This document shows, in pieces, positions 11,021 to 61,422 of a stretch of DNA of 64,000 nucleotides. Positions within the stretch are counted from its first letter, which is position 1. Each line of letters starts with the position of its first letter. Under the pieces are notes generated by a model. The model was not told the DNA's origin. It searched no databases and saw only the letters and a program-made list of their open reading frames with translations. This DNA is from an uncultured bacterium. Lineage in GTDB: Bacteria > Acidobacteriota > HRBIN11 > JAKEFK01. The stretch spans positions 1,088,001-1,152,000 of the forward strand of contig CAVZQN010000004.1 of assembly GCA_963777505.1 (NCBI GenBank), written 5' to 3'. A program made the position numbers and the translations under genes.

Positions 11021-12442
11021 ATGGACGCAACAACACAAGAACCTAAACTCACATTGAAAGAAACGCTTCAAATCATTCGTGATGCGATCCGCGGTGACAA
11101 GCGTGCCGACTTCACGGAAGGATTTTTAGGCAGAGATGTACTTTTACTTGCAGTACCAATGGTGCTGGAAGTTTGTCTCGAATCGGTATTTGCAGTCATT
11201 AACATTTTCTGGGTATCGCGTTTGGGTGCCGCAGCTACTGCTGCAGTTGGCCTTACCGAAGCAATGCTATCGATCCTTTATGCGCTTGCAATGGGACTAA
11301 GCATGGGAGGCGCTGCGATTGTGGCAAGAAGAATCGGTGAAAAGAATCCTGATGCCGCTGCTGTTGCTGCGGTTCAAGCGATCGTGCTTGGAATCCTGGT
11401 ATCTGTGACTGTTGCAATTGCAGGTGGAACCAACGCCGAACGTTTATTGGGTTTGATGGGTGCATCATCAGAGGTGATTGCAACGGGAACGTCATTCACA
11501 CGCATCATGCTGTTTGGAAATGGAACGATCGTGCTGTTGTTCTTGATCAATGCGATTTTTCGTGGCGCCGGTGATGCTGCAATCGCGATGCGTTGTCTGT
11601 GGCTGGGCAACATCATCAACATCATTCTTGATCCTTGTTTAATCTTTGGCCTTGGTCCTTTTCCTGAATTAGGAGTTACTGGAGCTGCAGTTGCAACGAC
11701 TACAGGAAGAGGTGCAGCTGTGTTGTATCAATTCTACAGACTTTCAAGAAGAGATAGCCGGATTGTCATTCATCGATCGAATTTACGTCTGGATCCTTCC
11801 GTGATGTTGTCGATGATCCGAATCTCCGGATCAGGAATTTTGCAGGCCCTGATCAATACAACAAGCTGGATTGGATTAATTCGCATTCTTTCGGGGTTCG
11901 GTAGTACTGCAGTTGCAGGCTACACAGTTGGAATCAGAATCGTTATTTTTGCGATTCTTCCATCGTGGGGTTTGAGCAATGCGGCTGCAACTCTTGTCGG
12001 ACAAAATTTAGGCGCCGGAAAACCAGAACGTGCTGAAAAAGCTGTATGGCTCACATGCCGTTACAACTTTTTCTTTTTAGGTTCTGTTTGTTTATTGTTT
12101 GAATTATTTGCAGGGGTCCTGATCCGTGCCTTTACAAAGGATGCAGCCGTCGCTGCTTACGGTGTTACTTGTCTGAGAATTGTCAGCGCTGGTTTCATTT
12201 TCTATGCCTTCGGGCTGGTGCTGACACAAGCTTTTAATGGAGCAGGGGATACCTGGACTCCAACGTTGATCAATTTATTTTGTTTCTGGCTGTGGGAAAT
12301 TCCACTTGGATATTTTCTTGCGTATAACGCGGGTCTCGGACCAACAGGCGTATTTATTGCCGTCACAGTTGCGTTTTCCACGTTGGCGGTTGTCAGCGCA
12401 ATTGTATTCAAACGTGGACGCTGGAAGCAGCGTAAGGTGTAG
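11021..12442 (+). CDS. MATE family efflux transporter
   Basis: About 12 TM; LAVPMVLE, NIILDPCLIFG, GVTGAAVAT, VGQNLGA. Confidence 0.93.
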   Translation: MDATTQEPKLTLKETLQIIRDAIRGDKRADFTEGFLGRDVLLLAVPMVLEVCLESVFAVINIFWVSRLGAAATAAVGLTEAMLSILYALAMGLSMGGAAIVARRIGEKNPDAAAVAAVQAIVLGILVSVTVAIAGGTNAERLLGLMGASSEVIATGTSFTRIMLFGNGTIVLLFLINAIFRGAGDAAIAMRCLWLGNIINIILDPCLIFGLGPFPELGVTGAAVATTTGRGAAVLYQFYRLSRRDSRIVIHRSNLRLDPSVMLSMIRISGSGILQALINTTSWIGLIRILSGFGSTAVAGYTVGIRIVIFAILPSWGLSNAAATLVGQNLGAGKPERAEKAVWLTCRYNFFFLGSVCLLFELFAGVLIRAFTKDAAVAAYGVTCLRIVSAGFIFYAFGLVLTQAFNGAGDTWTPTLINLFCFWLWEIPLGYFLAYNAGLGPTGVFIAVTVAFSTLAVVSAIVFKRGRWKQRKV

Positions 12443-12545: not shown

Positions 12546-13544
12546 ATGAAAAGGGTAGCCATTCATGGTTTTGGCAGAATAGGAAGATCTTTAACACGAG
12601 CAGCATTAAAAAATGGATTATTCGCACCAGTATCAGTTTCCGATATCACAGATCCATCAACACTCGCGGCATTGTTTGCATATGATTCAAATTATGGGGC
12701 ATGGCATGAGAAGGTTGAATTCAAGGACGGCAAATTTCATATAGGTGATCGTCAGGTTTCCTTTTTTAATTCTGCAAAGGCGCTTCCAAACTGGAAAGAG
12801 CTTGAAGTGGATTTAGTTGTCGATTGTACAGGCCGTGCTACAAAACGGGAATTTGCCCAGGCACATTTGGATGCCGGTGCGAAACGCGTTTTGGTGAGCG
12901 CGCCAAGCAAATCGCTGGAAGATTGCGATGCAGTTCTGCTTCCAGGAATTAATGTCGAACAGTTCGATCCATCGAAGCATCATATTGTTAGCATGGCAAG
13001 TTGTACAACCAACGCAATTGCGCCAGTTGTGAAAGTTTTAAGAGACACTGTTGGAATCAAAACAGGATTGTTTACGACAGTTCACGCTTATACGAATACG
13101 CAATCCTTAACAGATCAGCCGATGAAAGATCGAAGGGATTCCTGGGCAGCTGCGGAGAACATTATTCCTTCTGGATCTGGTGCAGCGAAATCGTTGAAGT
13201 TCATCTGGCCGGATCTTTCAATAACTGGCAAAGCCTATCGTGTACCGGTTCGTACTGGAAGCATCGTTGAGTTGAATGTCGTTCTGAATAAAGCATCCAG
13301 TGAGGATGAAATCAAAAACCTTTTTCGAAAAGCGGCCAATGAATCTCCATTGAAGGGGATTATGAGTGTTTTGGAAGAGGAGTATGCGAGTACGCGGATT
13401 CTTGGTGATCCGCATTCTTCGATCATCGATTTGCCGCTTGTTCAAATGATGGAAGGAACGCTTCTTTCAATTGCAGCATGGTACGACAACGAAATGGGTT
13501 ATTCGACTCGACTTGCGGAAACGGCAGCTAAGCTATCCGTTTAA
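12546..13544 (+). CDS. gap: Type I glyceraldehyde-3-phosphate dehydrogenase (divergent)
   Basis: GFGRIGR, ASCTTN catalytic Cys, HAYT, RVP, WYDNEMGYS; SD GGAGG. Confidence 0.9.
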   Translation: MKRVAIHGFGRIGRSLTRAALKNGLFAPVSVSDITDPSTLAALFAYDSNYGAWHEKVEFKDGKFHIGDRQVSFFNSAKALPNWKELEVDLVVDCTGRATKREFAQAHLDAGAKRVLVSAPSKSLEDCDAVLLPGINVEQFDPSKHHIVSMASCTTNAIAPVVKVLRDTVGIKTGLFTTVHAYTNTQSLTDQPMKDRRDSWAAAENIIPSGSGAAKSLKFIWPDLSITGKAYRVPVRTGSIVELNVVLNKASSEDEIKNLFRKAANESPLKGIMSVLEEEYASTRILGDPHSSIIDLPLVQMMEGTLLSIAAWYDNEMGYSTRLAETAAKLSV

Positions 13545-13546
13545 GA

Positions 13547-13631
13547 CAAAAGCAAAAATAAAAAATAAAAAAGCAAAAATAAAGACAGAAAATCATATTT
13601 TTTTGTCTTTTATTTTTAATCGTTGATCTTT
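13547..13631. repeat. A/T-rich heptamer-repeat inverted element (may also act as a terminator)
   Basis: Tandem AAAAATA/AAAAGCA units facing TTTTTAT/TTTTGTC units; similar element at 51462-51525. Confidence 0.6.
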
Positions 13632-13636
13632 ATTTC

Positions 13637-14002
13637 ATGCGGCGTATCGCCTGGTGGTTGATCCTGATCATTGTACTTTTCACTGGAGCCGTAGGTTTAT
13701 ATAATGGTCTTCAGGATTACTTCTATTCAAATCGCTTTGGTGCTCGTCTTCTTGCCGTAGCCGTCACCATATATGGAGTCGCCGGACTCGTTTCGTTTTT
13801 TGGGCTCATAGGCAGACGATCCTGGGCAATGCTTTCGATGATCATTTGGGCAAGCGCGATTTCGTTTGCAGGGACATTTGCATCGATATACTTTTCACCT
13901 CCAGAGGCTAGATTATTTTCCGGCTTAGGTGCTGGGATCACCTGTGTTGCATTGATGGGTTTAATCTTGATCCAGGTGCATCGCGAAATGTCACGATACT
14001 AA
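13637..14002 (+). CDS. Small 4-TM membrane protein
   Basis: Four hydrophobic helices in 121 aa. Confidence 0.7.
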   Translation: MRRIAWWLILIIVLFTGAVGLYNGLQDYFYSNRFGARLLAVAVTIYGVAGLVSFFGLIGRRSWAMLSMIIWASAISFAGTFASIYFSPPEARLFSGLGAGITCVALMGLILIQVHREMSRY

Positions 14003-14050
14003 ACCCAGAGCAGCAGCTCCCCATTTTTGCGGGTAAGATATGGGATTGTC

Positions 14051-17000
14051 ATGATTGGAATCAAACTTGGGAATCGTTATGAGATCGTTCGTTCATTGGG
14101 CGAAGGATCCATGGGCGTGGTCTATTTAGCGCGAGACCCATTACTGGAAAGGGATGTCGCGATCAAGCTTGTAAAAGGAAACATCCTGAGTTCAGAGTCT
14201 TTAGAACGATTTCGCCGCGAGGCGCTCATCGTTGCGAGATTTGATCATCCTTCACTGGTTTCGGTTCATGACACTGGTGAGCATGAAGGTTCTGTGTTTT
14301 TTGTAATGCCATTTGTAGAAGGCGAGAGTCTCCGTTCATTACTTAGAAAAGGCCCGCTTCCAATGAATGATGTGCTCGATATAGGAATTCAAGTTGCTGA
14401 AGCGCTTGAGTACAGTCATATGCGCGGCATCGTTCATCGTGATATCAAGCCTGAAAACGTATTAATCACTTCCGAACCGCAAGGACTTCGTGCGCGCGTA
14501 ACAGATTTTGGACTGGCTCTTACTACTGAAGATCAGCGGATTACTGGAGCGGACGTGGTTGTTGGAACTGTTGCATATTTATGTCCTGAAGCTGTAGGTG
14601 GGAAGAATGCAGATGCGCGATCCGATATTTATTCGCTTGGCGCAGTGCTTTACGAGTGTCTATCCGGACGAACACCTTATGTTGGCGATATTCGCAACAT
14701 ATTGTTCGGGATCACATATGAAGATCCACCTCAACTAAAAGGAATTACGCAGAATATTACAGAAGAATTGAACGCGGTTGTCATGCAATGTCTGCGTCGA
14801 GTTCCTTCTCTTCGACCGCAGCGTGCGCAGGATGTAGCGGATCAGCTTGCGCGATTGCGTTATGATCGCTCGGCCTGGGAACTCTCAACGCGTGCCGGCC
14901 GCAGGGAAGCGAGTGTTGGAAGGACACATGAATATACAGAACTTGTTCGCCGGCTTGAAGCAGCTGCAGATGGTCATGGCCAGCTGGTCCTTATCGGTGG
15001 AGATGCAGGTGTTGGGAAATCATTTTTGGTTGAACAGCTAACGTCTCTTGCGCGTGCACGCAGGATTCCGGTTTATCGCGGCCGTTTTCATGAACGCGAT
15101 CGTGCTTTTCCATTTCAAGGATTTTGCGAAGTCTGTCAGGATTTCTTCCGGGGTCCTGATGCGTCAGGCTCTGGACCTCATGTATCGGGAATTGATTTTT
15201 CAGATCTTGCTAATGAATTAACCAATCTTTTTCCTTCGCTTGCCGATCCGAATGCATTTGTTTTTCCACGATCCGAGCAATTCGCAGAAATTGAAACTGC
15301 TTCCGATGTGGCAGCATTACACGATTTGCTTGCGCGAACGTTGATCCGAATTAGTGCGGGAGGTCCTGCAATTATCGTTCTTGAAGATTTGCAGCATGGG
15401 GCAGAAGCCACAGCTACACTTAAGCCAATTCTTTCAAGATTGGACCGCTCGCCGATGTTAATCATTGGAACTTATAGAAGTAATGAAGTTACCAGGGATC
15501 ATCCTGTCAGCAATTTAATCCGTAGTCTAACAAATGAAAAAAATTTCAGTTTGATTGAATTGAAGCCGCTAGGAGTGCAGGATCACCGCCGATTGGTTGA
15601 ATCGTTGACTATGAATTCGGCGCCTGAAGAAGAATTTCTTGACAAACTTTATGAAGCAACCGAAGGCAATCCATATTTTACGAAAGAGGTGATCCGTTCG
15701 CTCGCTGAATCCGGAGTTTTAGTTCCGGTTGAAAGTGGGAGGCTTGTTGTTTCGGGTGATCTTGAAATGACATTTGATTCTCTGCCGGCCACTGTTCAGC
15801 AAACGATTGAAGCCAGGATGCGCAAGCTTAAGGAGCCGTTGCAGGAAGTTTTATCTGCAGCATCAGTACTGGGGAAAACGTTCGAATCTGAAGACCTAAT
15901 TTTTTTACTTGAGAAGGATGAAAAAGTTGAAGATGCAATTGATGCATTGATTGCCGATGATTTTTTGGAAGAAGATCGCGAAACGTATCGTTCAGATCGT
16001 TTGCGATTTTCCAGCGCGATGGTTCGAGATGCTTCCTATGCGCGGCTTTCCAGAAGGCGGCGAAAGAATTATCACAAAAAGTATGCTCAAGAGCTGGAAC
16101 GCCGGAACGAAAATTTTCTTGAACGAGTTTATCCCAGTTTAATTCATCATTATGCGCGCGCTGGTGAAGCCGAAAAAGTTGTGGATTATGGAATTGATTT
16201 TGCGCGCAAGACTTTGCGGACTTTTGGGACAGAAGAAGTGATCAGAGGCCTTAGAGATGGTGCTTGAATTTGGTCCCGGCGTTCGTGAAGGAGAAGTTCG
16301 GCGTTTGATGGCCAAAGCATATCGCATCAAAGGTGAGCCGATTGAAGCCCTGGAAGAATACGGAAAAGCTGTCGAAATTTTTCAACGTTTTGGTGATACA
16401 CACAGAGCGGTTGAATCGATGGCTCTGGCTGCAGAAACTGCGTGGCATTTCAGGCGAACGGAAGATGCTCGTGTTTGGATTGAAAAAGGAATTCCAGTCG
16501 CACGATCCGCGGGTTCTCAAATGGCTTTGAAAAAATTGTTGTCTCTTGGAGAAACTGCTGCAAACCTGCGTGGCGATCATGAATCCGGCAGACTGTATAT
16601 GAAAGAGCTGGACCGTTTGGAAAAAACCGGCCCAAGCATTGTCGCTCCAAATACTGCAGGAATTTTACATGTGCCTGTTAGCGGACTTGTTCATGGATTG
16701 GATCCATCGCGCGTTTTTTCAATGCAGGAAGAAGAAACAATTCCGCTAATCTTTGAAGCATTAACGCGTCAAGGAAGAGCAGCAGGAATTCGTCCATGGT
16801 TGGCTGCAGAATATTATGCCGAAAATAGTGGGCAAACTTTTCATTTCCGCCTGCGTGAAAATATTCGTTTCCATAATGGCAAAACTCTGACGGCACGAGA
16901 CGTTTCGTATTCTCTTCATCGTTTGACAACTTCAAACTTAAGCCGCAAACGGCATTTGCTTTCAGGCATGAAAGAAATTCAAATCATTACTGATCACGAA

Positions 17001-18098
17001 TTTCGCATTCATCTTGATCGTCCGATTGCATTCTTTCCAGCACTACTCGCGGATACATCATGTGCGATCGTGCCTGAAGGAACTCCAAGGATCGGATTTA
17101 ACTGGAAAGAAGATTGTGCCGGAACCGGACCGTTTCGTGTAACAAGATTTGAACCAGGGAAGATCTTAGAACTCGAACCTTTTCTTGAGTACTGGCGGCC
17201 TGGTCTTCCTAAATGTCAAAGACTGGTTTACACATTCGGTGTTGCGCCGGATCAAATCCTCAGTGGATTCCGTTCTGGTTTGTTTTCGTTAGCCTGGGAT
17301 CTTCATCCAGAGAGTGTAGAAGAGCTGTTGCGCGATACTCTTTTTGGGGCTCAATACAAAGAGAACCCAAGTCTTTCTACTTACTATCTTGCAATGAATG
17401 CAAATCATGGCACTTTAAAGGATGAAAAACTTCGTCATGAGTTAATTCGATCGTTAGACGTTCAATCACTTGTTACGAATTATGCCGGGCGTTCTGCAAT
17501 TCCTGCAGTCGGTCTCATTCCACCAGGTTTGCTTGGATATGAGCCGCCGATTCTGGACAGCCCTGAGGTTGTAAGGACTGACAGTGTTACAACAGAAGCT
17601 CTACGCATTGCGGATCATGAAATAGACTTGTCGGGAAATGTTCATCCAATATTTGACGGGCCTTACGCCACTTTTCAAAGTGAAATATTGAATGCGCTCA
17701 AACATAAAGGATTTACTGTTCATGGAATTGAACAAAAATGTCGTACCGATCAGCCTCCTCCGCAAAATGCCAATTTTGAATTAGGGCGATGGATCGCTGA
17801 TTATCCAGATCCGGATGGTGTGTTTTACTTGTTGTTGCAATCGGAAAATGGATTATTAGGGAAATTTTGTGGATCAAAAGAATTGGATGAATTAATAAAT
17901 CGAGGCCGTTCGGAAATAAATCCACTCGCGCGACATCAACATTATCGCGAAATAGAACGCTATATTTCGGATCACGCGCTCTTGTTGCCTTTGTTTCATG
18001 AACAATCTTATCGATTTGCGTTGAAAGAAGTTCAGGAATTCGAAGTTTCTTATAGCCGCCCCGTCGTTCCTTACGAAAAACTCTGGATCCAACGCTAA
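14051..18098 (+). CDS. Ser/Thr kinase - STAND-type (AAA_16-like) ATPase - TPR - family 5 solute-binding domain fusion (frameshift near 16247)
   Basis: Kinase: GEGSMGVVY, VAIK, HRDIKPEN, DFG. ATPase: GDAGVGKS, IIVLEDL, GNPYF. SBP5: FRLRENIRFHNG..LTARDV, GTGPF, WIADYPDPD. Removing one G gives one ~1348-aa ORF. Confidence 0.8.
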
Positions 18099-18190
18099 CC
18101 TCTCCCGCACCCCTGCTCCTCCGCATCTGATTTAATGAACAACGGTTAATAATTGTATAGAACGCTAGATCGAAAAAGTGGAGGGCTAAA

Positions 18191-18553
18191 ATGAGTAAGC
18201 CAGTTCTAGGAATGATTTTAGGAGCAATACTCGGAGTGTTCGATGGGCTGTCCGCGTTGTTTACGCCTGAAGTAGCTCCGATGATTGTTGGAATCGTGAT
18301 TGGTTCGACTATTAAAGGCCTTATTTCTGGTGTTTTGATCGGTTTGTTTGCCAGGCGATATAAGTCGCTTCCCTTAGGCATTGTTTTTGGATTATTAGTA
18401 GGACTTCTGCTTGCATATTTGATTGCCGCAATGCCATCGGAAGATGGAAAGCATTATTACTTTGAAATCATGTTGCCTGGTGCGATTCTTGGAATCATTG
18501 TCGGTTATGCGACCCAAAAGTATGGCCGTTCCACTTCTGCCTCTTTGCGGTAA
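18191..18553 (+). CDS. Small membrane protein, hypothetical
   Basis: Four Gly-rich TM helices; SD GGAGG. Confidence 0.75.
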   Translation: MSKPVLGMILGAILGVFDGLSALFTPEVAPMIVGIVIGSTIKGLISGVLIGLFARRYKSLPLGIVFGLLVGLLLAYLIAAMPSEDGKHYYFEIMLPGAILGIIVGYATQKYGRSTSASLR

Positions 18554-18567
18554 TACAATGTACACTT

Positions 18568-19455
18568 GTGAAAAGCCATGCAGTCCGCGGTGCAATCAAT
18601 TTAGTATTGAGCACCTTCTTTTTTGGAATTGCCGCAGCCCTGATTAAACTTCTCAGCACTGAATATTCCATTTTTGAGATTGCATTCTTTCGCAACTTCT
18701 TTGGTTTAGTCCCTGCTATTTGGATGAGCAGCCGCCGTGGTATTGCAGGCTTTCATAGCGCTCGTCCTTTTGCGCACTTTATGAGAGGCTTTTACGGCAT
18801 CTTCTCCATGTTTACAATTTTTTATGCTTATTCTTTGATCCCATTGCCAGATGCGACAGCAATTTCATTCGCAGCACCATTATTTATCACTGCGCTTTCA
18901 GTTCCATTGCTCAATGAAAAAGTTGGACGCCATCGTTGGACTGCAGTGCTTGTTGGACTAGTAGGTGTATTGATTGTACTTAGGCCTGGCAGCGGAATGC
19001 TAACGCGTGGTGGAACCGCTGCTTTATCATCAGCATTCTTTTATGCATTGGCAATGATCAGCTTACGCAAACTGCGAGACACAGAAAACACAGAAGTAAC
19101 AACTTTGTATTTCACTTTTTTCGCGAGTGTTGTCACAGGAATCATGGTGCCTTTTTTTTGGAAGACACCAGATTTGCACGGAGGATTAATGCTTACCTGC
19201 GTAGGCTTGCTTTCGGGTGTCGGACAATACTTCATGACAAAAGCATTCGGACAGGCCGAAGTTTCAGCCATAAGCCCGTTCATTTATGCATCCATCATCT
19301 GGTCAACTGTGTTCGGTATTTTGATCTGGAACCATATTCCAATATGGAGCACGCTTCTTGGAACCAGCATCATCATCCTCAGCGGAATCTATATTTTGCA
19401 TCGCGAACGTGTCCGCTCGGTGACTCGTGAAACCGTCCCAGTCCCCGAACCATAG
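18568..19455 (+). CDS. DMT/EamA family transporter
   Basis: Two EamA repeats, about 10 TM; PLLNEKVG..RWTAV. Confidence 0.9.
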   Translation: MKSHAVRGAINLVLSTFFFGIAAALIKLLSTEYSIFEIAFFRNFFGLVPAIWMSSRRGIAGFHSARPFAHFMRGFYGIFSMFTIFYAYSLIPLPDATAISFAAPLFITALSVPLLNEKVGRHRWTAVLVGLVGVLIVLRPGSGMLTRGGTAALSSAFFYALAMISLRKLRDTENTEVTTLYFTFFASVVTGIMVPFFWKTPDLHGGLMLTCVGLLSGVGQYFMTKAFGQAEVSAISPFIYASIIWSTVFGILIWNHIPIWSTLLGTSIIILSGIYILHRERVRSVTRETVPVPEP

Positions 19456-19687: not shown

Positions 19688-21499
19688 ATGAAAGCTGATT
19701 TGAGGAAAGAGGTGGCGCCTCGACCTGCGCCAAAAAAAATTCAAAAAGTTCACGCTGCCAGCGCGGCAGAAATGGGTGCTCGCCAGCGCGAGATATCGGT
19801 ATCAGAATTTTTCACGAAGAATCGTCATCTTCTTGGTTTTGATAATCCACGTAAAGCTCTACTGACGTGTGTAAAAGAAGCTGTCGATAATTCGCTTGAT
19901 GCTTGTGAAGAAGCTCACATACTTCCTGAAGTTCACGTCCGGATTGATGTGGTTGCTGTCAATGGCACTGTTTTGCCGCCTTCTCAAGCGACTCGTTTCC
20001 GTCTCACCATAACGGACAATGGACCTGGCATCGTGAAGGAACAAATACCCAAGATATTTGCAAAGCTTCTTTACGGTTCCAAGTTCCATCGATTGAGAAT
20101 GAGCCGGGGTCAGCAAGGAATCGGGATTTCAGCAGCCGGGATGTATGGTCAGTTAACAACAGGGAAACCTGTTCGTATTATTTCGCGAACGAGCGATCGG
20201 AAGCCTGCTAACTTTTTCGAAATTCAGATTGATACAAAAAAGAATGAACCGATCATTCACAAGCGCACAGAAATGGATTGGCATCATGCGCGTGGAACAG
20301 AAGTCAGTATTGAACTTGAGGGTCGATATCAAAAAGGACGCGCTTCTGTGGATGAATATTTGGAATTAACAAGTATTTCCAACCCGCATGCAACGCTTTC
20401 TTATCAATCACCGGAAGGTCAAATCATTCAATATCCAAGAACGTTTCATGAATTGCCGCCGCCAACAAGGGAAATTAAACCGCATCCTTACGGCATTGAG
20501 CTTGGAATTTTGTTGAAGATGCTTCATGACACAAAAAGCCATTGGATTTCCGGGTTTTTAACAAGCGATTTTTCGCGAGTCTCACCGCGTACGGCCGGAG
20601 AGATTTGTCAAAAAGCAGGAGTGGATCCGCGTTCACATCCAAGAAAAATTGCACGCGATCAGGCGGAAAAGTTATATCAAGCCATTCAGAATACGAAAAT
20701 TATGGCGCCGCCTACAGATTGTATTTCGCCGATCGGAGAAAAAGCGATTCTTGCAGGATTGTACAAACAAATTCGTGGAGATTTTTATACGGCTGCGACT
20801 CGTCCACCTGCGGTGTATCGCGGAAATCCTTTCGTGATTGAAGTTGGACTTGCCTATGGAACAGGAGATGGATCGACTTCGCTTGAACGTAAAGCGCAGG
20901 CTCTTGCAGAAGGTGAATCCAATGACGAAGACACTGAACAAGCACGTGTGCTCCGTTATGCGAATCGCGTTCCATTGGTGTATCAACAATCGGGATGTTC
21001 TGCGTATAAGTCTGTTATTGATACAGCCTGGAAAAATTATGGCGTACCACAATCACGCGGGGCATTGCCGCAGGGTCCAATTGTGGTCTTCATCCATATG
21101 GCATCCGTATGGGTTCCCTTTACAAGTGAATCAAAAGAAGCAATAGCTGATTATGATGAAATCCGGAAAGAAATGAAGCTTGCGTTGCAGGAATGCGGAC
21201 GCCGGCTGGGTACATATCTACGGCGGCGCGAACATGCAAAAAGCGAATTTAACAGGCGGAATATTTTTGCGCTATATATCGAAGAAGTTGCAGAAGCCTG
21301 CGGACGACTGAAACCAAAGAAGCTTGATATTGAAAAGTTAAAGAAACAACTCTTAAAGATTGCTATCAATAAAACCGGCGGACTAAAAACGGATGAACTA
21401 TTAGGTAAGAAGAAAAAAGATTTACCTGAAGACTTGCCGCATTCGATTATCGTTACGCCTGACGGTGTAGAGGGAGAGGTTCCGGAGAGCGATGAGTGA
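19688..21499 (+). CDS. top6B: DNA topoisomerase VI subunit B
   Basis: ISVSEFF, EAVDNSLDA, DNGPG, LYGSKFH, SRGQQGIGIS (GHKL), RYANRVPL, VPFTSESKEAIA. Confidence 0.95.
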   Translation: MKADLRKEVAPRPAPKKIQKVHAASAAEMGARQREISVSEFFTKNRHLLGFDNPRKALLTCVKEAVDNSLDACEEAHILPEVHVRIDVVAVNGTVLPPSQATRFRLTITDNGPGIVKEQIPKIFAKLLYGSKFHRLRMSRGQQGIGISAAGMYGQLTTGKPVRIISRTSDRKPANFFEIQIDTKKNEPIIHKRTEMDWHHARGTEVSIELEGRYQKGRASVDEYLELTSISNPHATLSYQSPEGQIIQYPRTFHELPPPTREIKPHPYGIELGILLKMLHDTKSHWISGFLTSDFSRVSPRTAGEICQKAGVDPRSHPRKIARDQAEKLYQAIQNTKIMAPPTDCISPIGEKAILAGLYKQIRGDFYTAATRPPAVYRGNPFVIEVGLAYGTGDGSTSLERKAQALAEGESNDEDTEQARVLRYANRVPLVYQQSGCSAYKSVIDTAWKNYGVPQSRGALPQGPIVVFIHMASVWVPFTSESKEAIADYDEIRKEMKLALQECGRRLGTYLRRREHAKSEFNRRNIFALYIEEVAEACGRLKPKKLDIEKLKKQLLKIAINKTGGLKTDELLGKKKKDLPEDLPHSIIVTPDGVEGEVPESDE

Positions 21500-21532
21500 T
21501 GCGGGATGCGGGATGTGAGATGAGAGATGAGT
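21491..21532. repeat. Six GATGnnn heptamers spanning the top6B stop and top6A start
   Basis: GATGAGT GATGCGG GATGCGG GATGTGA GATGAGA GATGAGT. Confidence 0.7.
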
Positions 21533-22651
21533 AAAAATATGAAGACGAAAACGACTGTCAAGAAAGTAAAAAAGGATGTAGAAGGACGGCTCATTTCAGT
21601 AGCCGATGAAGTTGTTTCTGCTGCAAAATCAAATCGAAGTCCTGCGATTCAAATTCCAAGTCGTACATTGTCGAATGTGAACTACAACTCCAAACGCGGC
21701 ATTATCGAAATGGGAAAAGGGAAGCAGGAGCGTTTATTTTTCAACACAGGCATGGCAAAAAAGTTCATGCAAACGGTTCTGGTTGCGGATGCTCTTGCAG
21801 AATTACAGAGACAGGATCTAACGACTTCACTTCGCGAAATTTATTATCGTACAAAACACACGATCAAAGATTCACATGAAAATACATTCGATTCGCAGGG
21901 AGAATCGGATCCGATTATTGAAGATCTTGAGGTAGCTCTAGATTCTTTACGCGAGGAATTGCATGTTCGCGCTGAAAATACAGGAACCGTCGTTGGTCCA
22001 CTCGTTATGGTGGATGATGGCGATACGATTGACTGTACCCGATTAGGCAAAGGCGGATATTCGGTTCCTTCCATCGTTGAACCTGAATACATTCAGATTA
22101 AGAAATGCACAGCGGATTTTGTTTTGCTTGTAGAAAAAGGCACTCAGTGGAACCGTCTATCGGAAGATAAATTCTGGAAAAAACATAATTGCATTTTGTT
22201 AACTGGAAACGGACAACCCCCGCGAGGTGTCCGCAGACTTTCGCGCCGTTTGAATGAGGAATACAAGCTTCCCGTCTATGTGCTTGTTGATAATGATCCA
22301 TGGGGCTATTACATTTTTTCAGTTGTTAAACAAGGTTCCATCAGCCTTGCATATGAATCGCAACGGATGGCTGTGCCTGATGCAAAATTCCTGGGTCTCT
22401 CCAGCGGCGATGCTGAGGAACATGGTCTGCCGAGAAATGTTGGTATCAAGTTGAACGACAAAGATATCGCGCGCGCAAAAGAAATTCTGAACTATCCATG
22501 GTTTCAAAAGAAGCATTGGCAATCTGAAATCAAGCAAATGCTTGCTTCAGGTTTGAAATATGAATTGGATGCGCTTGCGAATAAAAACTTTCGCTATCTC
22601 ACCACAGATTACTTGCCGAAAAAACTGAAAAGCAAAAAGTGGTTGGATTAA
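21527..22651 (+). CDS. top6A: DNA topoisomerase VI subunit A (Spo11 family)
   Basis: SLREIYY catalytic Tyr region; TOPRIM LLVEKG, GNGQP, DNDPWG, YELDAL. Confidence 0.95.
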   Translation: MSKNMKTKTTVKKVKKDVEGRLISVADEVVSAAKSNRSPAIQIPSRTLSNVNYNSKRGIIEMGKGKQERLFFNTGMAKKFMQTVLVADALAELQRQDLTTSLREIYYRTKHTIKDSHENTFDSQGESDPIIEDLEVALDSLREELHVRAENTGTVVGPLVMVDDGDTIDCTRLGKGGYSVPSIVEPEYIQIKKCTADFVLLVEKGTQWNRLSEDKFWKKHNCILLTGNGQPPRGVRRLSRRLNEEYKLPVYVLVDNDPWGYYIFSVVKQGSISLAYESQRMAVPDAKFLGLSSGDAEEHGLPRNVGIKLNDKDIARAKEILNYPWFQKKHWQSEIKQMLASGLKYELDALANKNFRYLTTDYLPKKLKSKKWLD

Positions 22652-31682: not shown

Positions 31683-32783
31683 ATGGCAATGGAACTCATG
31701 CAGGTCTTATCAAATGAAGGGATTGTAGATCAAAAGACGGAGCCTTCCATTCCAAAGGAGGATTTGCTTCGTTTATACAGAATCATGTTGCTGAACCGGC
31801 AGCTTGATGAGCGGATGATGAAATTACAGCGGCAGGGGCGTATTGGATTTTATTTGCAATCCATGGGTGAAGAAGCAACTACAGTTGGGACAGCATATGT
31901 TCTGAAGCCGCAAGATTGGATTTTTCCATGCTACCGTGAGCCAGGCGCAGCATTTATACGCGGATTTAGCGTGAAAGATTTTGTCTGTCAGTTGATCGGA
32001 AATGCTGGGGACCCTGTTAAAGGCAGACAGATGCCAAACCACTATGCTTTCAAAGCTGGAAATTACACTTCAATTTCGAGTCCGGTTGGAACACAAATTC
32101 CTCAAGCGGTGGGAGCTGCATGGGCCGCCAAAATAAAAAAAGAGCCAGTCGTTGTTCTGGTTTATTTTGGTGAAGGAGCTACCTCGGAAGGAGATTTCCA
32201 CGTAGGGATGAACTTTGCTGGAGTCTTCAAAACGCCTTGTATTCTTGTTTGTAGAAACAATGGATATGCGATCTCAGTCCCGCGATCCCGCCAAACAGCT
32301 TCCGAATCCATTGCCGTAAAAGCGAAAGCATACGGTTTTCCAGGAGTTCGTGTTGATGGAAACGACATTCTTGCTGTTATAAAAGCAACTCAGGATGCTG
32401 CAAATCGCGCACGATCCGGCGAAGGGCCTACATTGATCGAAGCTGTGACATACAGGCAGGGCGCACATTCTTCAAGCGATGATCCACGAGCGTATCGTCC
32501 AGATGATGAACATGAAAAGTTATTACAAACAGATCCGATCGTCCGTTTTAGAAAATATCTAGAAGAAAAGAAATTGTGGAATGCATCACAGGATGAAGCT
32601 TTGCAACAAGAAATTAATAAAGAAATCTTAACCGCCATTGAAGAAGCTGAAAAGCATGGAGTTCCTCCAGTCGAAAGTTTATTTGATGACGTATTTGCAG
32701 AGCTCACCCCAAACTTGAAAGAACAGAAAGAATATTTGCTTGATTATCGGAAGCGCAACCCGCATGGAGCGGAGGTGGAATAA
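31683..32783 (+). CDS. 2-oxoacid dehydrogenase E1 alpha, paralogue 1 (BCKDH/Gram-positive PDH type)
   Basis: [20 protein letters not shown] ThDP motif, [11 protein letters not shown]. Confidence 0.92.
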
Positions 32784-33762
32784 TGCCTGTAATGAATATG
32801 ATTGGTGCGCTAAATGAAGCTTTAAAAATTGAAATGCGACGTGATCCGCGTGTCGTCCTTCTTGGTGAGGATGTCGGAAAGCTCGGCGGAGTATTTCGTG
32901 TATCGTTGGATTTGCTGAAAGAATTTGGGCGAAGATCGTGTCATTGATACGCCTTTAGCTGAGGCGGGAATTATTGGCGCTGCGATTGGAATGGCGCTTT
33001 ATGGCTTGCGGCCGGTTCCAGAAATTCAATTCTCAGATTTTATTTTTCCTGCATACGATCAAATCGTAAATGAGCTTGCGAAATACAGATACCGAAGCGG
33101 CGGTCAATATAGTTGTCCCGCTTACAATTCGTACTCCTGTCGGTGGAGGAATTCGTGGAGGACATTACCACAGTCAAAGTCCGGAATCGCTTTTTATTCA
33201 CGTTGCAGGTTTGAAAGTGGTGATCCCTTCAAATCCTTATGATGCGAAAGGGATGTTGCTTTCAGCGATTCGTGATGAAGATCCAGTTTTATTTATGGAG
33301 CCGAAAAGAATTTATCGCGCTTCAAAAGGTGAGGTACCTGAGGGCGATTATACAGTTCCAATCGGAAAAGCTGCAGTCTTACGCGAAGGATCAGATGTTA
33401 CTTTAATTTCGTATGGAGCCATGGTTCATACAGTGCTTGAGGCGGCTGAAGCAATTCAAAGTGCAGGCGGAGCTTCGTGTGAAATTATCGATCTCCGTTC
33501 GTTAATGCCGTTGGATTCTGAAACGATGATCAATTCTGTGCAAAAAACTGGCCGCGTTGTTGTTGTTCATGAAGCTCCAAAGACCTGTGGTTTTGGTGCA
33601 GAGTTAATTGCGCAGATTAATGAGAAAGCATTCTTGCATTTGCAAGCTCCACCGGTCCGCGTTACAGGCTTTGATACTCCGTTTCCTTATACACTTGAAC
33701 ATGAATATCTTCCTGATGTTGGAAGAATTCGTGAAGCAGTTGAACACGTAACTAGTTTCTAA
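32783..33762 (+). CDS. 2-oxoacid dehydrogenase E1 beta, paralogue 1 (two frameshifts, near 32928 and 33118)
   Basis: Starts [14 protein letters not shown] with TAATG coupling; GEDVG, DTPLAE, EIQFSDF, HSQSPE, DLRSL across three frames. Confidence 0.85.
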
Positions 33763-33766
33763 TTCA

Positions 33767-33846
33767 GATGCGTGATGCGACATACACGATGTGGGAAAAA
33801 GAACCAAAGTCCCATGTCGCGCATTTCGCATCGCACATCCCGTATC
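33767..33846. repeat. GATGnnn heptamer inverted element
   Basis: GATGCGT GATGCGA..GATGTGG facing TCGCATC GCACATC CCGTATC. Confidence 0.65.
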
Positions 33847-33856
33847 GAGGTTGAAG

Positions 33857-35089
33857 ATGGCTTTTGAATTCAAGATGCCTGACATTGGTGAAGGTGTTGT
33901 AGAAGGCGAAATTGTTAAGTGGCATGTGAAGCCTGGCCAGAGTGTGAAAGAAGATGATCCACTGGTAGAAGTAATGACAGATAAAGCCACGGTGATGATC
34001 CCTTCACCACGGAAAGGAAAGATTTTGGAGACACGTGGTGATGAAGGCGGCATTATCAAAGTCGGCGCTGTACTGTTAACACTCGATACCGGAGACGGAA
34101 AAGCCGTTGCACCCGAAAAGGCTGCTGCAAAACCTGAACCTGCACCACCGCAAGCTGAAAAGAAAGTCGTCAGTGAAGCCACCACAGAACCATCCAAAGG
34201 CCGTGCGCTTGCAACACCCGCATTACGAAAAATGGCTCAGGATATGGGGATTGATATTAATACCGTAACAGGAAGCGGTCCTGGCGGAAGAATCACTCGG
34301 GAAGATATTGTCAATTATTCAAGCCCAGCAAAAGCAAAAACCCCTATTCCTTTTGTTCCTTCAAGGACTCCTTCGGCACCAGGGGAAGAAAAGGTTGAGG
34401 AAATTCCATTTCGCGGGCTGCGTAAGAAAGTTGCAGAAAAAATGGTTGAATCCAAAACACATGCGGTTCATTACACATATGTTGATGAAATCGACATGAG
34501 TGAACTTGTGAAACTTCGGAATTCTGCAAAAGATCTCGCTTCTGAGCGGGGAATCAAACTCACTTACCTGCCGTTCATCATGAAAGCGCTTGTCGAAGGA
34601 TTAAAAAAATATCCGATGTTAAATGCATCGTTGGATGAAAAAGCAGGCAAGATCCTGATCAAACATTACTTTCATCTCGGCATTGGAGTCGCGACTCCCG
34701 ATGGGCTTACAGTGGTTGTTGTTAAACATGCTGATCAGAAAAGTCTCTTTGAGCTTGCGCAAGAAGTAGACAGGCTTAGCGAAGCAGCACGTCAAAATAA
34801 AGTAGCTCTGGAAGACCTGAAGGGAAGCACATTTACGATTACAAGTTTAGGAACGATGGGTGGAATGTTTGCAACACCTGTCATCAATTATCCTGAAGTT
34901 GCAATCGTAGGGATCCACAAAATTGAGAAACGTCCTGTAGTTCATGAAAACCAGATCGTCATTCGCGACAGAATGTACATGAGTCTGTCTTTTGATCATC
35001 GTGTTGTCGATGGTGCTGTTGGCGCTGAGTTTACGCAGTACGTAAAAAACTTTCTTGAAAATCCGGCTTTGATGTTTATTCAGTTTTAG
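33857..35089 (+). CDS. Dihydrolipoamide acyltransferase E2, paralogue 1
   Basis: MPDIGEG, lipoyl-Lys TDKA, E3-binding GSGPGGRI, DHRVVDG. Confidence 0.93.
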   Translation: MAFEFKMPDIGEGVVEGEIVKWHVKPGQSVKEDDPLVEVMTDKATVMIPSPRKGKILETRGDEGGIIKVGAVLLTLDTGDGKAVAPEKAAAKPEPAPPQAEKKVVSEATTEPSKGRALATPALRKMAQDMGIDINTVTGSGPGGRITREDIVNYSSPAKAKTPIPFVPSRTPSAPGEEKVEEIPFRGLRKKVAEKMVESKTHAVHYTYVDEIDMSELVKLRNSAKDLASERGIKLTYLPFIMKALVEGLKKYPMLNASLDEKAGKILIKHYFHLGIGVATPDGLTVVVVKHADQKSLFELAQEVDRLSEAARQNKVALEDLKGSTFTITSLGTMGGMFATPVINYPEVAIVGIHKIEKRPVVHENQIVIRDRMYMSLSFDHRVVDGAVGAEFTQYVKNFLENPALMFIQF

Positions 35090-35096
35090 TCTTCAT

Positions 35097-36161
35097 ATGG
35101 TTCAGGTACTCAATCAATCCACTCCGTCAAAACAACTTGACAAGCCTGATGTAATACGACTCTACAGCGAGATGCTGAAGCTTCGGTTGTTGGATCAAAG
35201 GATGTTGACTCTTCAAAGACAAGGTCGCATCGGATTTTATGGAACTGCAACCGGTGAAGAAGCTGCAGTTATTGGAAGCGCATTTGCATTAAAAAAAGAT
35301 GATTGGATTTTCCCTGCACTGCGGCAGGGAGGTGCAGCTCTTCTTCGCGGTTATCCGTTGGTTGAATACATTTCACAATGTATGGGGAATGTTGCAGATA
35401 AGACGAAAGGTCGCCAGATGCCGAGTCATTATTGTTCACGTCCTGCCAATTTTGTGAGCTGGTCAAGCTGTATCGGTACCCAGATCCCTCACGCAGTGGG
35501 TGCCGCATGGGCAATGAAGATACAAGGACATAAGAATGTAGCGGTTGGATATATGGGTGATGGCGCCACATCACAAGGTGATTTTCATGTGGCAATGAAC
35601 TTTGCAGGCGTCTTCAAAGTTCCAGTTGTATTCTTTTGCCAAAACAATCAGTGGTCGATTTCTGTAAACATCAAACAACAGACTGCATCGGAAACGATTG
35701 CGATGAAGGCCGAAGCATATGGATTTAGCGGTATAACAGTTGATGGCAACGACGCACTCATTGTATATTCCGCGATGCACGATGCTGTCGAAAAAGCCCG
35801 GGCCGGAGAAGGACCTCAATTTGTAGAAGCAATTACATATCGAATGGGCGCTCATTCATCTTCTGATGATCCGCGTCTTTACAGAGAAGATTCGGAAGTC
35901 GAAGAATGGAAACGTAAAGATCCAGTCACTCGCATGTTGAAGTATCTGGAGCAGCAAGGTTTTTGGAGCGCTGCCGAACAGGAAGCTTTAGAAGAAAAAT
36001 TGAATCAAGAAATTCTCGATGCTGTCGCAGAAGCGGAGAAAATTGGCCCGCCACCCGTTGAAACTTTGTTTGAAGATGTATATTCAGTAGAGTTACCGCA
36101 TCTTAAAGAACAAAAGATGAGCTACATGGCTTTAAAAGGTAAAACTGAACGAAAAGGATAA
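35097..36161 (+). CDS. 2-oxoacid dehydrogenase E1 alpha, paralogue 2
   Basis: [29 protein letters not shown]. Confidence 0.92.
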   Translation: MVQVLNQSTPSKQLDKPDVIRLYSEMLKLRLLDQRMLTLQRQGRIGFYGTATGEEAAVIGSAFALKKDDWIFPALRQGGAALLRGYPLVEYISQCMGNVADKTKGRQMPSHYCSRPANFVSWSSCIGTQIPHAVGAAWAMKIQGHKNVAVGYMGDGATSQGDFHVAMNFAGVFKVPVVFFCQNNQWSISVNIKQQTASETIAMKAEAYGFSGITVDGNDALIVYSAMHDAVEKARAGEGPQFVEAITYRMGAHSSSDDPRLYREDSEVEEWKRKDPVTRMLKYLEQQGFWSAAEQEALEEKLNQEILDAVAEAEKIGPPPVETLFEDVYSVELPHLKEQKMSYMALKGKTERKG

Positions 36162-36163
36162 AT

Positions 36164-37567
36164 ATGGCACAGAAAGAATGTGATGCACTTGTAATTGGCG
36201 CAGGACCAGGCGGGTATGTTTGCGCGATCCGTTTGGGACAATTAAAACAAAAAGTAATTCTTGTTGAGAAAGTATGGATCGGTGGAACATGTCTTCATGT
36301 TGGTTGTATTCCATCGAAGGCTCTTATTACCGCAGCAAAATATTTTGAAAAGCTGCATCATCTCTCAGATTGGGGAATTAATGTTTCGGGAGCCACGATC
36401 GATTTTGGGAAAATGGTTCAATGGGAAAAATCAATCATCGAAAAATTTACAGGCGGGATCCGCCAGCTATTAAAAGCGAATAATGTTGAAACGATAATGG
36501 GAACGGCCCATTTTGTTTCTCCAAACGAGGTAGAGGTTGTCAACGGCGACGAAACGACAACGATTAAAGCTAAAAATGTCGTTATTGCAACGGGTTCTGT
36601 TCCTTCCGGAATTCCTCCATTTCCATTTGATGGCGAACGAGTCATCAGCTCTACAGAAGCTCTTGTGCTTCCAGAAATTCCAAAACGCTTGTTTGTAGTG
36701 GGCGGCGGTTACATCGGATTGGAAATGGGGATCATGTATGCGCATCTTGGATCGAAGGTAACTGTCGTTGAAATGATGGATCAGTTACTTCCTGGTTTCG
36801 ATGCGGAGCTTGTTCGTACACTGACTCGAAGTATGCGTGCAAAAGGGATTGAATACTTTGTCAACGCAAAAGCTAAAAGTTTTGAAGGAACTGTAGGAAA
36901 CTTAAAAGCAGTTGTTGAAATTGAAGGTCAGGATCGTGTGTTTGAAACGGATCGAATTCTGGTTACTGTAGGGCGCAAGCCAAATACTTCAGGTCTTGAA
37001 ATTGAGAAAGCTGGAATCAAAACAGATCAACGTGGTTTTGTTCCGGTAAATAATAAATGTCAGACTTCAGTTCCAAGTATTTATGCAATCGGTGATGTGA
37101 TTGGAAATCCTATGCTTGCGCATAAAGCTTCGAAAGAAGGAGAAGTTGTTGCAGAAATCATAGCAGGACACAATCGGGTGGTGGATTATCTGGCAATGCC
37201 AGCTGTGATTTTCACTGAACCTGAAATTGCAACAGTTGGGCTTTCGGAATCGGAAGCAAAAGAGAAGGGCTATGATGCAGTGAGCGGAAAATTTCCATTT
37301 GCTGCTCTAGCGCGTGCAATGACTCAAGGATCGACTGAGGGTTACGTTAAAGTCATTTTTGATAAGGAAAGCAAGCAGGTTCTTGGGTTTCATATCATTG
37401 GTTCGGGAGCTTCCGATCTCATTGGTGAAGCTGCGCTTGCGATTGAGATGGGATCCAGTGTGGAAGACATCGCGCTCACAGTTCATCCTCATCCAACATT
37501 GACGGAATCATTGATGGAAGCGGCAAAAGCTGCTTTAGGTGAAGCCATCCATATTGTGAACCGGTAA
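36164..37567 (+). CDS. lpdA: Dihydrolipoyl dehydrogenase E3
   Basis: GAGPGGY, GGTCLHVGCIPSK, GGGYIG, HPHPTLTE. Confidence 0.96.
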   Translation: MAQKECDALVIGAGPGGYVCAIRLGQLKQKVILVEKVWIGGTCLHVGCIPSKALITAAKYFEKLHHLSDWGINVSGATIDFGKMVQWEKSIIEKFTGGIRQLLKANNVETIMGTAHFVSPNEVEVVNGDETTTIKAKNVVIATGSVPSGIPPFPFDGERVISSTEALVLPEIPKRLFVVGGGYIGLEMGIMYAHLGSKVTVVEMMDQLLPGFDAELVRTLTRSMRAKGIEYFVNAKAKSFEGTVGNLKAVVEIEGQDRVFETDRILVTVGRKPNTSGLEIEKAGIKTDQRGFVPVNNKCQTSVPSIYAIGDVIGNPMLAHKASKEGEVVAEIIAGHNRVVDYLAMPAVIFTEPEIATVGLSESEAKEKGYDAVSGKFPFAALARAMTQGSTEGYVKVIFDKESKQVLGFHIIGSGASDLIGEAALAIEMGSSVEDIALTVHPHPTLTESLMEAAKAALGEAIHIVNR

Positions 37568-37568
37568 A

Positions 37569-37625
37569 GGGACCGCAGGCAGTCTTGCCTGCACTACGGG
37601 ATCGCGCGGACTTCCAGCTGCCGCA
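37569..37625. repeat. Two degenerate GGGA-type REP-like units
   Basis: GGGACCGCAGGCAGTCTTGCCTGCA and GGGATCGCGCGGACTTCCAGCTGCCGCA. Confidence 0.65.
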
Positions 37626-37631
37626 TACACT

Positions 37632-38588: not shown

Positions 38589-38610
38589 TCTTTGTGCCTT
38601 TTGTGGTTAT

Positions 38611-40590: not shown

Positions 40591-40644
40591 TTTGTTTCCA
40601 ATTCTACTTTGTGTCTCTGCGGTTCCTGTTACAATTATTTCTTG

Positions 40645-41613: not shown

Positions 41614-41632
41614 GAGAATAGAGGATAGAGGA

Positions 41633-61401: not shown

Positions 61402-61422
61402 GTGAAAAAAGACTAACTCAAG

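Follow-up and report, generated by a model that had tools for sequence, protein, structure and literature searches.

An apparently split kinase-STAND ATPase-TPR-solute-binding protein gene of an uncultured acidobacterium and the family to which it belongs

The window examined here is a 64 kb stretch (64,000 nucleotides, positions 1,088,001 to 1,152,000 of contig CAVZQN010000004.1) from an uncultured bacterium of the Acidobacteriota. Its positions 14051-18098 (+ strand) most likely hold one gene of ~1348 codons that joins a Hanks-type Ser/Thr protein kinase, an ATPase of the STAND class (for signal transduction, with numerous domains), an array of tetratricopeptide repeat (TPR)-like helices and a family 5 solute-binding protein (SBP) domain. 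In this assembly one extra base interrupts the gene, whose reading requires 14051-16246 to be joined in frame to 16248-18098. The open reading frame (ORF) listing of the window gives two + strand frames here: ORF1, from the in-frame TTG 14027 through TGA 16265-16267, and ORF2, from ATG 16257 to 18098; each half is free of further stops or shifts. The real start of the gene is likely ATG 14051 (MIGIKLGNRYEIV), in agreement with the N-termini of the intact relatives P0004-P0006. A promoter and terminator scan of 13400-18700 returned 4 promoter-like and 5 terminator-like sites, not above shuffled sequences (means 8.0 and 5.6).

The kinase domain occupies 14078-14830 (+). Pfam Pkinase matches residues 18-268 of ORF1 (8e-50, 170.1 bits against a cutoff of 31.7), and the catalytic motifs are present: with ORF1 motif positions numbered from TTG 14027, these are the G-loop GEGSMGVV at 25, VAIK at 44, HRDIKPEN at 137 and DFG at 160, plus CPE. 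Profile and motifs together place the domain among the Hanks-type kinases; the activation loop, TTEDQRIT, is Thr-rich and offers candidate phosphorylation sites. The Stk1/PknB PASTA kinase model (NF033483) scores 287.3 bits against a cutoff of 450, over the kinase domain only, and PASTA repeats and a transmembrane segment are absent.

The STAND module (14915-16051, +) comprises an AAA_16 nucleotide-binding domain, a helical domain and a winged helix/arm, as recognized by Pfam, a partial NCBIfam match and Foldseek. AAA_16 matches ORF1 residues 297-480 (1.1e-18, 68.7 bits against a cutoff of 32.6). Walker A is GDAGVGKS (14999-15022, residue 325), Walker B is IIVLEDL (15371-15391, residue 449) and an EGNPY motif follows (15662-15676, residue 546), all on the + strand; G42, G44 and K45 of the P-loop are invariant across 36 sequences. 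A model of the domain for nucleotide binding and oligomerization (NOD) and of the arm has a predicted local distance difference test score (pLDDT) of 82.5, and its top Foldseek matches are CED-4, the PH0952-type STAND-TPR protein 6mfv, Apaf-1, Avs3, plant NLRs and MalT. The E-values run from 2e-9 to 3e-7; the template-modelling (TM) scores are low (0.3-0.5), which is usual where chains have several domains, and the matches also include AAA+ proteins of the ORC/Cdc6 type. By sequence, the NOD-TPR part has 0 matches in PDB at E<=1e-3. Both the P-loop domain with its Walker A and B motifs and the NOD fold are those of STAND NTPases of the MalT/AAA_16 type.

TPR-like helical repeats follow at 16052-16622 (+), made up of helices 390-453 of the ORF1 model and, in the ORF2 model, of six more at 9-122. 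These helices start in ORF1 and go on in ORF2, so that one repeat domain is cut in two by the frame break. Pfam TPR_12 matches ORF2 residues 17-83 (2e-6, 28.4 bits), just below the cutoff of 30.1.

The rest of the chain, 16662-18020 (+), has both lobes of the family 5 solute-binding fold of OppA/DppA/MppA/GsiB/NikA type, by Pfam, PDB and Foldseek comparison. SBP_bac_5 matches ORF2 residues 178-431 (4.1e-45, 154.9 bits against a cutoff of 32.4). The NCBIfam DppA model aligns to residues 176-597, and the nickel, glutathione, oligopeptide, dipeptide and SgrR models of NCBIfam also match, all far below their cutoffs. The best PDB sequence matches of the domain are 8upi (5e-29) and MppA (3e-21). 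In the ORF2 model (pLDDT 80), a low-confidence linker (124-133) connects the helices (9-122) to a complete SBP (136-588). Its best Foldseek match is 1uqw (2.8e-31, TM 0.76), and its neighbors are YliB/GsiB, the Mesorhizobium peptide-binding protein 8upi, MppA, AapF, OppA, DppA and NikA/NikZ (E 3e-31 to 1e-26, target-normalized TM 0.64-0.80, identity 15-22%); 470-517 columns of ORF2 are aligned to 1uqw, 8upi, MppA, OppA and DppA. The WIADYPDPD motif (17790-17816, +) holds the conserved ligand-amine-binding Asp, D515 of ORF2. The domain thus has the profile, the two-lobed fold and the amine-binding Asp of family 5, and lacks export and a partner ABC transporter.

An initial annotation made from the window sequence had proposed this kinase-STAND ATPase-TPR-family 5 SBP anatomy for 14051-18098, and the Pfam hits and motifs confirm it. 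Its assignment of a STAND ATPase agrees with AAA_16, the Walker motifs and a model fold of the CED-4/Apaf-1/MalT class, and its family 5 domain at the C-terminal end has the full two-lobed fold by Pfam and Foldseek, with the amine-binding Asp kept.

The gene belongs to a large family. A search limited to longer proteins gave 611 matches at E<=1e-3 among 8000 scored candidates, and 120 listed longer proteins carry Pkinase, AAA_16 and SBP_bac_5 or parts of this set. An exhaustive phmmer search with ORF2 against 1.84 billion cluster representatives (clusters at 50% identity) gave 28,062 matches at E<=1e-3 and 223 at E<=1e-30, so the family is sharply set off from ordinary SBPs. The best 150 representatives were classed by module queries cut from P0004: 41 are kinase-NOD-TPR-SBP-SBP, 7 more have this order with a weak TPR match, 26 have the kinase-NOD-TPR-SBP form of the window gene, and 76 are shorter pieces or forms without kinase or NOD. 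The 120 listed proteins divide into kinase-NOD-TPR-SBP-SBP (68), a two-kinase form (29), NOD-TPR-SBP-SBP (11), TPR-SBP-SBP (8) and a one-SBP form (4). Most family members carry two tandem SBPs, and the window gene has the one-SBP form; its SBP corresponds to the second one, at the C-terminal end, of two-SBP relatives, with 42-43% identity there against 32-34% over the first SBP and TPR. The fusion is thus no isolated case: it is one form in an existing family whose commoner form has two tandem SBPs. Nor are homologues of the two halves never fused or adjacent, a case that the initial annotation had envisaged, since relatives are fused as single chains.

The window genome (G000) itself also encodes two longer paralogues, one of 1875 aa with two SBPs and one of 2149 aa with two kinases and two SBPs. 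They lie on its contig 1 (L020:2058-8507) and contig 11 (L021:2028-7655), with neighbors unrelated to those of the window gene. Both kinases of the two-kinase form have full catalytic motifs in the relatives P0008 and P0011. Among the shorter forms, P0009 and P0050 (1599 and 1644 aa) have no kinase and P0022 (1349 aa) has neither kinase nor NOD; these are on contigs of 179-490 kb. P0127 is a 610-aa TPR-SBP protein starting almost exactly at the ORF2 start. The public names of relatives are 'ABC transporter substrate-binding protein' and 'BREX system ATP-binding domain-containing protein'.

A pattern search of species-representative genomes gave 493 matches, and 193 of these could be confirmed as relatives. 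Lineage titles were taken for the best 80 of these 193, all of them metagenome-assembled genomes (MAGs), and 70 of the 80 loci are titled with Acidobacteriota lineages: Pyrinomonadaceae (26), Blastocatellia (8), Chloracidobacterium (4), Thermoanaerobaculia/-aceae (10), Holophagales (1) and unspecified Acidobacteriota (21). The others are from unnamed bacteria (8), a Nitrospiraceae MAG (1) and a Clostridia MAG (1). In 41 related genomes, among the matches listed, those that reach the SBP are found in 7/7 genomes of the window's family (f1), where there are several paralogues per genome, and elsewhere only in G021 and G035 (unpublished).

Relatives bear directly on the interruption of the gene. 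Because the frame of ORF2 is not open before 16242, any change of frame must lie within 16242-16264 (23 bases). The extra base shifts the frame by +1 at 16246-16248 (+): as read it is the G in AGA-G-GCC, while read alignment puts it at 16246. Relatives read through the site as EEVIRALEMVLEFG, where the window has EEVIR if read in frame with ORF1 and ALEMVLEFG if read in frame with ORF2. P0003-P0006, single chains of 1252-1347 aa that are 69-89% identical to ORF2, read TFGTEEVIRALEMVLEFGPG here. The genome G001, of the same genus, has an uninterrupted frame of 1349 codons at the syntenic position and lacks the extra base. A 201-nt environmental contig (X3 rec5) with 2 mismatches extends more than 31 nt to either side of the site and has one base fewer; a 151-nt contig from a different study (X1 rec2), also with 2 mismatches, has one base fewer too, and with only 15 nt to the left of the site is not counted as bridging. 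These contigs are from near-identical relatives and are not source reads. The two halves had been proposed to be one gene, and the relatives, single chains with the same domain order, bear this out; the break, placed near 16247 by removal of one base, is correctly located according to both the frames and the reading of the relatives.

The interruption has company in the window. Five further frame breaks, at ~6756, 32933, 33116, 42979 and 43915, affect four housekeeping genes of this 64 kb stretch, recognized by Pfam profile coordinates that run on from one frame into the next. These genes are an epimerase (Epimerase profile 1-85|103-239), a 2-oxoacid dehydrogenase E1-beta with two breaks (Transket_pyr 3-47|47-103|98-173), a LipB-like lipoyl transferase (LplA-B_cat 2-54|51-199) and a pyridoxal phosphate (PLP)-dependent enzyme (PALP 5-146|142-295). 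Against syntenic G001 DNA, the two E1-beta sites, the LipB and PLP breaks and the break in the target gene are each a single inserted base; for the epimerase break the DNA comparison returned no G001 match. So many broken core genes in a 5.2 Mb, 95.9% complete genome point to indels of base calling or assembly. The split is thus most likely such an error and the predicted product is of ~1348 aa. The assembly appears to carry about one indel error per 10 kb, so other 'split genes' of this genome are to be distrusted as well; the practical lesson of the window is that single-base errors of the assembly are many and that the split most probably stems from one of them. Four of six insertion sites (16247, 32933, 42979 and 6756) lie within 12 nt of a GATC, compared with 16% of window positions, although GATC is dense (the 64 kb contain 406 sites), the sample is tiny and the indels are placed only approximately. 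Such proximity may reflect systematic base-calling errors at methylated sites.

The initial annotation had taken the protein to be intracellular, with no signal peptide, no transmembrane segment and no ABC permease genes nearby, and all of this is borne out. Its kinase domain begins at ~residue 10, straight at the N-terminus, and by sequence inspection and Kyte-Doolittle hydropathy the window protein has no signal peptide, lipobox or transmembrane segment. Hydropathy is a crude test here; the maximal 19-residue mean is 1.57 in ORF1 (at the Walker B strand) and 1.26 in ORF2, below the usual threshold of 1.6. Of 122 family proteins, 20 have a 19-residue mean of at least 1.6 (maximum 2.02). These hydrophobic windows were rejected as membrane helices: they are the Walker B strand, SBP core strands (FFPALLA...AIVP) or the first SBP beta-strand at the TPR-SBP junction (for example GGNLVVALAVPV), and contain Gly or Pro. 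No convincing transmembrane segment or signal peptide is thus found in the window protein or its relatives. In the Pfam scan of 67 ORFs of the window, none matched a permease or ATPase family of ABC transporters, and no ABC permease or ATPase gene recurs beside the 80 best family loci.

The SBP retains clues to its ligand. Its residues invariant across the family include D149-P150, R200, R204, G289-T290-G291, Y376, N381, R393, W512, D515, D518 and D520; D515 does not vary in the alignment (32/32 sequences), and R511 is kept in 90% or more. The stretch GR-WIADYPDP aligns with IRASWVGDYNEP of MppA, GRMGWLGDFNDP of Bacillus subtilis OppA and GWAADTPDPD of DppA (4qfk), which sets D515 against the Asp in WVGDYNEP of MppA, in WLGDFNDP of B. 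subtilis OppA and in WAADTPDPD of DppA, and R511/D515 against the R..WxGD motif of MppA/OppA. For an OppA-type SBP, the available part of one study describes Asp419 as holding the N-terminal amine of the peptide (PMC5736914), and it and a second, likewise available in part, have Arg413 bind the C-terminal end (PMC5736914; PMC6305025). Arg413, Trp416 and Cys417 contact the ligand in the docking and simulation work excerpted from PMC6305025. The nearest solved relatives of the window SBP bind peptides, murein tripeptide, glutathione or nickel chelates. Together these residues favor a small ligand that has a carboxylate as well as a free amine, a class to which the motif points without naming the compound.

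Parts of this architecture resemble several known systems. Like PknK and MalT, the window protein combines solubility with a MalT-type AAA_16 NOD and helical repeats, and with PknK it shares the kinase; MalT (8bob) is a Foldseek neighbor of the NOD. MalT differs in sensing maltotriose via its helical repeats and in its output through a LuxR DNA-binding domain, whereas the window protein has a family 5 SBP after the TPR. PknK was compared by description, and to our knowledge has no SBP domain. Ser/Thr kinases like Mycobacterium tuberculosis PknK are placed in the MalT subfamily of STANDs, with inducer-driven NOD opening and multimerization, in the portion consulted of PMC4381067. The resting state described there and in passages of PMC6468293 is an ADP-bound closed NOD, held by arm and sensor, which an inducer opens before multimerization; PknK itself is described as soluble or membrane-associated in an extract of PMC9045387.

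The best NCBIfam match of the NOD-arm-TPR part is the TOMM kinase/cyclase (TIGR03903), which aligns residues 289-740 to model positions 476-912 with 282.6 bits and is alike in having a kinase upstream of an AAA_16-TPR layout. The cutoff of 705.75 is not reached, Guanylate_cyc is absent from ORF1 and ORF2, and by name and model the TOMM protein has no SBP. Membership in a TOMM system was rejected on the score (282.6 against 705.75 bits) and the missing cyclase.

With the periplasmic OppA, MppA, DppA, GsiB (YliB) and NikA the window SBP shares the two-lobed fold and a W-x-x-D motif with the amine-binding Asp; the OppA-type proteins are exported and linked to transporters, whereas the window SBP is cytoplasmic and covalently joined to a kinase-ATPase. 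SgrR, the sugar-phosphate stress regulator of Escherichia coli, is a precedent for a cytoplasmic family 5 SBP-like sensor, and its NCBIfam model partially matches ORF2 (residues 146-312, 5.8e-14, 51.6 bits against 476); it differs in having a DNA-binding output and neither NTPase nor kinase. A soluble TPR kinase set by an amino-acid-sensing SBP is found in the PknG-GlnX-GlnH system of Actinobacteria, according to the sections available of PMC6069109 and PMC8546545. There the SBP is a separate extracytoplasmic protein acting via a membrane protein, with no STAND ATPase, and here all is in one chain.

Avs and other bacterial NLR-related proteins have the same effector-NOD-sensor layout, and Avs3 (8dgc) is a structural neighbor of the NOD. 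They differ from the window protein, which has no PADLOC match outside the kinase, a housekeeping context and a conserved sensor; an SBP type of sensor was not found in the defense STAND papers searched (PMC13581612; PMC7159879). A search by term of the main text of these two STAND surveys, which were available in part, gave no mention of a kinase-STAND-SBP architecture, and we found no description of it in the open full-text literature, subscription journals and supplements being outside this coverage. One paper containing both 'SBP_bac_5' and 'Pkinase' (PMC13293324, seen in part) was set aside, since it concerns the siderophore-binding PBP2.

From the fused chains, the cytoplasmic location, the STAND fold and the full SBP, the natural reading is that the SBP acts as sensor in an effector-NTPase-sensor layout, as had been suggested at the outset. 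We lean towards a single soluble cytoplasmic protein of ~1348 residues, split artefactually in the assembly: a MalT/PknK-type STAND ATPase with an N-terminal Hanks kinase as effector and TPR plus family 5 SBP as sensor. Every step past this architecture is what we infer from it. At rest, the TPR-SBP sensor would keep the NOD shut with ADP bound. A small ligand from the cytoplasm that bears a free amine, perhaps a di- or tripeptide or a glutathione-like or murein-peptide-like compound, would bind, the lobes of the SBP would close and autoinhibition would be released, lobe closure taking the place of inducer binding to a helical sensor. The NOD would then exchange ADP for ATP and oligomerize, and the clustered kinase domains could trans-autophosphorylate the Thr-rich activation loop and go on to phosphorylate targets. 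A bolder extension, which we consider doubtful, makes the family a cytoplasmic bacterial counterpart of NOD1/NOD2: the MppA/OppA-like domain of this NLR-like STAND receptor would bind peptides of cell-wall recycling (murein tripeptide or tetrapeptide), or else oligopeptides that are imported or arise by proteolysis, and oligomerization induced by the ligand would convert their level into Ser/Thr phosphorylation. If so, tandem SBPs would allow coincidence detection of two ligands, and the family would be the first STAND proteins gated by a Venus-flytrap domain and a major nutrient and cell-wall signaling route of soil Acidobacteriota.

Several observations weigh against a single-chain ligand sensor. 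The best public runs cover only 0.04-0.11 of the sampled words, and four of them gave the short environmental contigs, at a depth of 2.1-2.7; a real strain-specific frameshift keeps a small chance. The two-protein form could be translated, since ATG 16257 is preceded by GAGG 8 nt upstream, a Shine-Dalgarno-like element by our reading that the inserted G itself creates, and corresponds to the conserved Met of ...ALEMVLEF.... The gene would then be either a fresh pseudogene or a functional pair, an ORF1 kinase-NOD and an ORF2 TPR-SBP that re-associate via the cut TPR array. The extra base is after all present in the sequence as given, neither half has other stops or shifts, the kinase-less and NOD-less forms P0009, P0050 and P0022 are found on long contigs, and P0127 (47% identity) begins one residue past the equivalent Met. 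P0127 starts with V rather than M, however, and may be cut by a contig end; for its context, a metagenome scan returned only generic SBPs at 19-30% identity. A free-living bacterium with a 5.2 Mb genome is unlikely really to carry five other frame breaks in core metabolic genes within 64 kb. The nearly identical contigs from the environment keep the frame, and G001 and all close relatives are fused. A true split at ATG 16257, entered as a caveat in the initial annotation, is for these reasons, together with the 201-nt contig that lacks the base, unlikely. Programmed +1 ribosomal frameshifting would also join the two frames, and the local sequence AGAGGCCTTAGAG, with CTT-AGA after the Shine-Dalgarno-like AGAGG, is a context that we take to resemble the prfB (RF2) frameshift site. 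To this we give almost no credence: no relative carries the shift, G001 and the near-identical contigs are plainly in frame, and unrelated genes of the window have comparable insertions of one base with no prfB-like context around them.

The remaining adverse points concern the sensor and the role of the protein. In this subgroup the SBP_bac_5 match spans only profile positions 2-257 of 368, and no NCBIfam transporter model reaches its cutoff for ORF2 (best 109.9 bits against 600), so that the class of ligand cannot be read from orthology. Instead of sensing a free metabolite, the SBP might serve for docking: it would grip a stretched-out peptide segment, N-terminal or internal, of a protein that is a partner or substrate, and so either bring that protein to the kinase or signal that proteins are unfolded or processed; we rate this a minor possibility. 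OppA-type SBPs bind extended peptides largely via the backbone and the terminal amine, as set out in the available parts of PMC5736914 and PMC6305025, the Asp for that amine is invariant, and two tandem SBPs could give bivalent binding; no conserved partner gene stands beside any of the 80 loci, and the evidence does not separate a free peptide from a protein terminus. Far less credible, and in our judgment practically dismissed, is that ORF2 is an ordinary exported binding protein of an ABC transporter beside an unrelated kinase gene. It would account for the public name of relatives and for the clear SBP_bac_5 match. ORF2, however, opens with TPR helices continuous with those of ORF1 and has no signal of export, its relatives are fused behind a kinase-ATPase, no transporter gene is in the window or recurs in the 80 loci, and the shortfall against the NCBIfam transporter models counts here too.

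Defense raises the other objections. The target is 69-72% identical between the window genome and G001 against 83-92% for GAPDH, P5CR and Top6, and a STAND with a kinase and many paralogues per genome is also seen in some defense systems. A gene evolving somewhat faster than its neighbors and multiplied within genomes leaves some slight probability to an NLR-like anti-phage or conflict sensor, whose SBP/TPR would recognize a phage-derived peptide or protein and whose kinase would be a toxic or alarm effector. The STAND fold with Avs3 and NLRs among its neighbors, kinase scores of at least 270 bits against the PD-T4-6 and mad6 kinase models of PADLOC and the several paralogues per genome in f1 are all compatible with this. 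Yet all 35 PADLOC-DB v2 families hit by P0004 or ORF1 align only within residues ~1-310, and the matches are confined to the generic kinase domain (residues ~6-290); the NOD, TPR and SBP are unmatched and ORF2 has 0 hits. The gene sits between the GAPDH and topoisomerase VI genes, a position conserved across the genus, no neighbor recurs in the 80 loci, and the window scan shows no mobile-element or defense family. Mean pairwise identity among 24 long paralogues is 0.63 for the kinase, 0.56 for the NOD, 0.61 for the arm, 0.45 for the TPR, and 0.52 and 0.53 for the first and second SBP: conservation of the sensor domains is close to that of the ATPase, and they are not hypervariable. The part available of the defense STAND survey PMC13581612 has no solute- or substrate-binding sensors in its main text. 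The defense role offered as an alternative in the initial annotation is therefore unsupported, and our best reading is of a widespread acidobacterial family and a vertically inherited chromosomal signaling gene, not a mobile defense gene.

For a STAND switch with a Venus-flytrap SBP sensor we found no published description; the kinase-STAND combination (PknK) and an SBP-like sensor (SgrR) are known separately. The family is large and concentrated in Acidobacteriota, abundant soil bacteria whose signaling is almost unstudied. The public name 'ABC transporter substrate-binding protein' is misleading, as it inflates apparent peptide-transport capacity in metabolic reconstruction. For most bacterial Hanks kinases and STANDs no ligand is known, and since SBP pockets are tractable by thermal shift and isothermal titration calorimetry, they give a direct way to a ligand for both a bacterial Hanks kinase and a STAND switch.

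We examined the neighborhood of the gene. The order in G001 is identical: P5CR, asparaginase, GAPDH, a 121-aa ORF (u121), the target, a 120-aa ORF (u120), EamA, Top6B, Top6A and a TPR protein. Clustering of 671 ORFs from the 80 loci put the target in 79 of them, and the next clusters of neighbors in only 8, 7 and 5 loci; lacking recurrent neighbors, the gene stands alone. The small flanking ORFs (13637-14002 and 18191-18553), which match no known family, keep their position in G001, with 40% and 84% identity, and are absent beside the other 79 loci. Topoisomerase VI is mainly an archaeal and eukaryotic enzyme; its genes here, Top6B (19688-21499) and Top6A (21527-22651), begin three genes downstream of the target and are 90-92% identical in G001. 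Upstream, a MatE efflux gene (11021-12442) is intact in the window, and the syntenic place in G001 (L022 ~16594-16888) has two remnants, with matches of 48 and 52 aa. Parts of 2-oxoacid dehydrogenase complexes are unusually densely packed at 31683-42775 (three E1-alpha-like genes, the one broken E1-beta, two E2 and one E3), followed by the lipoyl transferase. Another signaling protein, a CHASE2-adenylate/guanylate cyclase, is encoded at 59497-61536 on the - strand.

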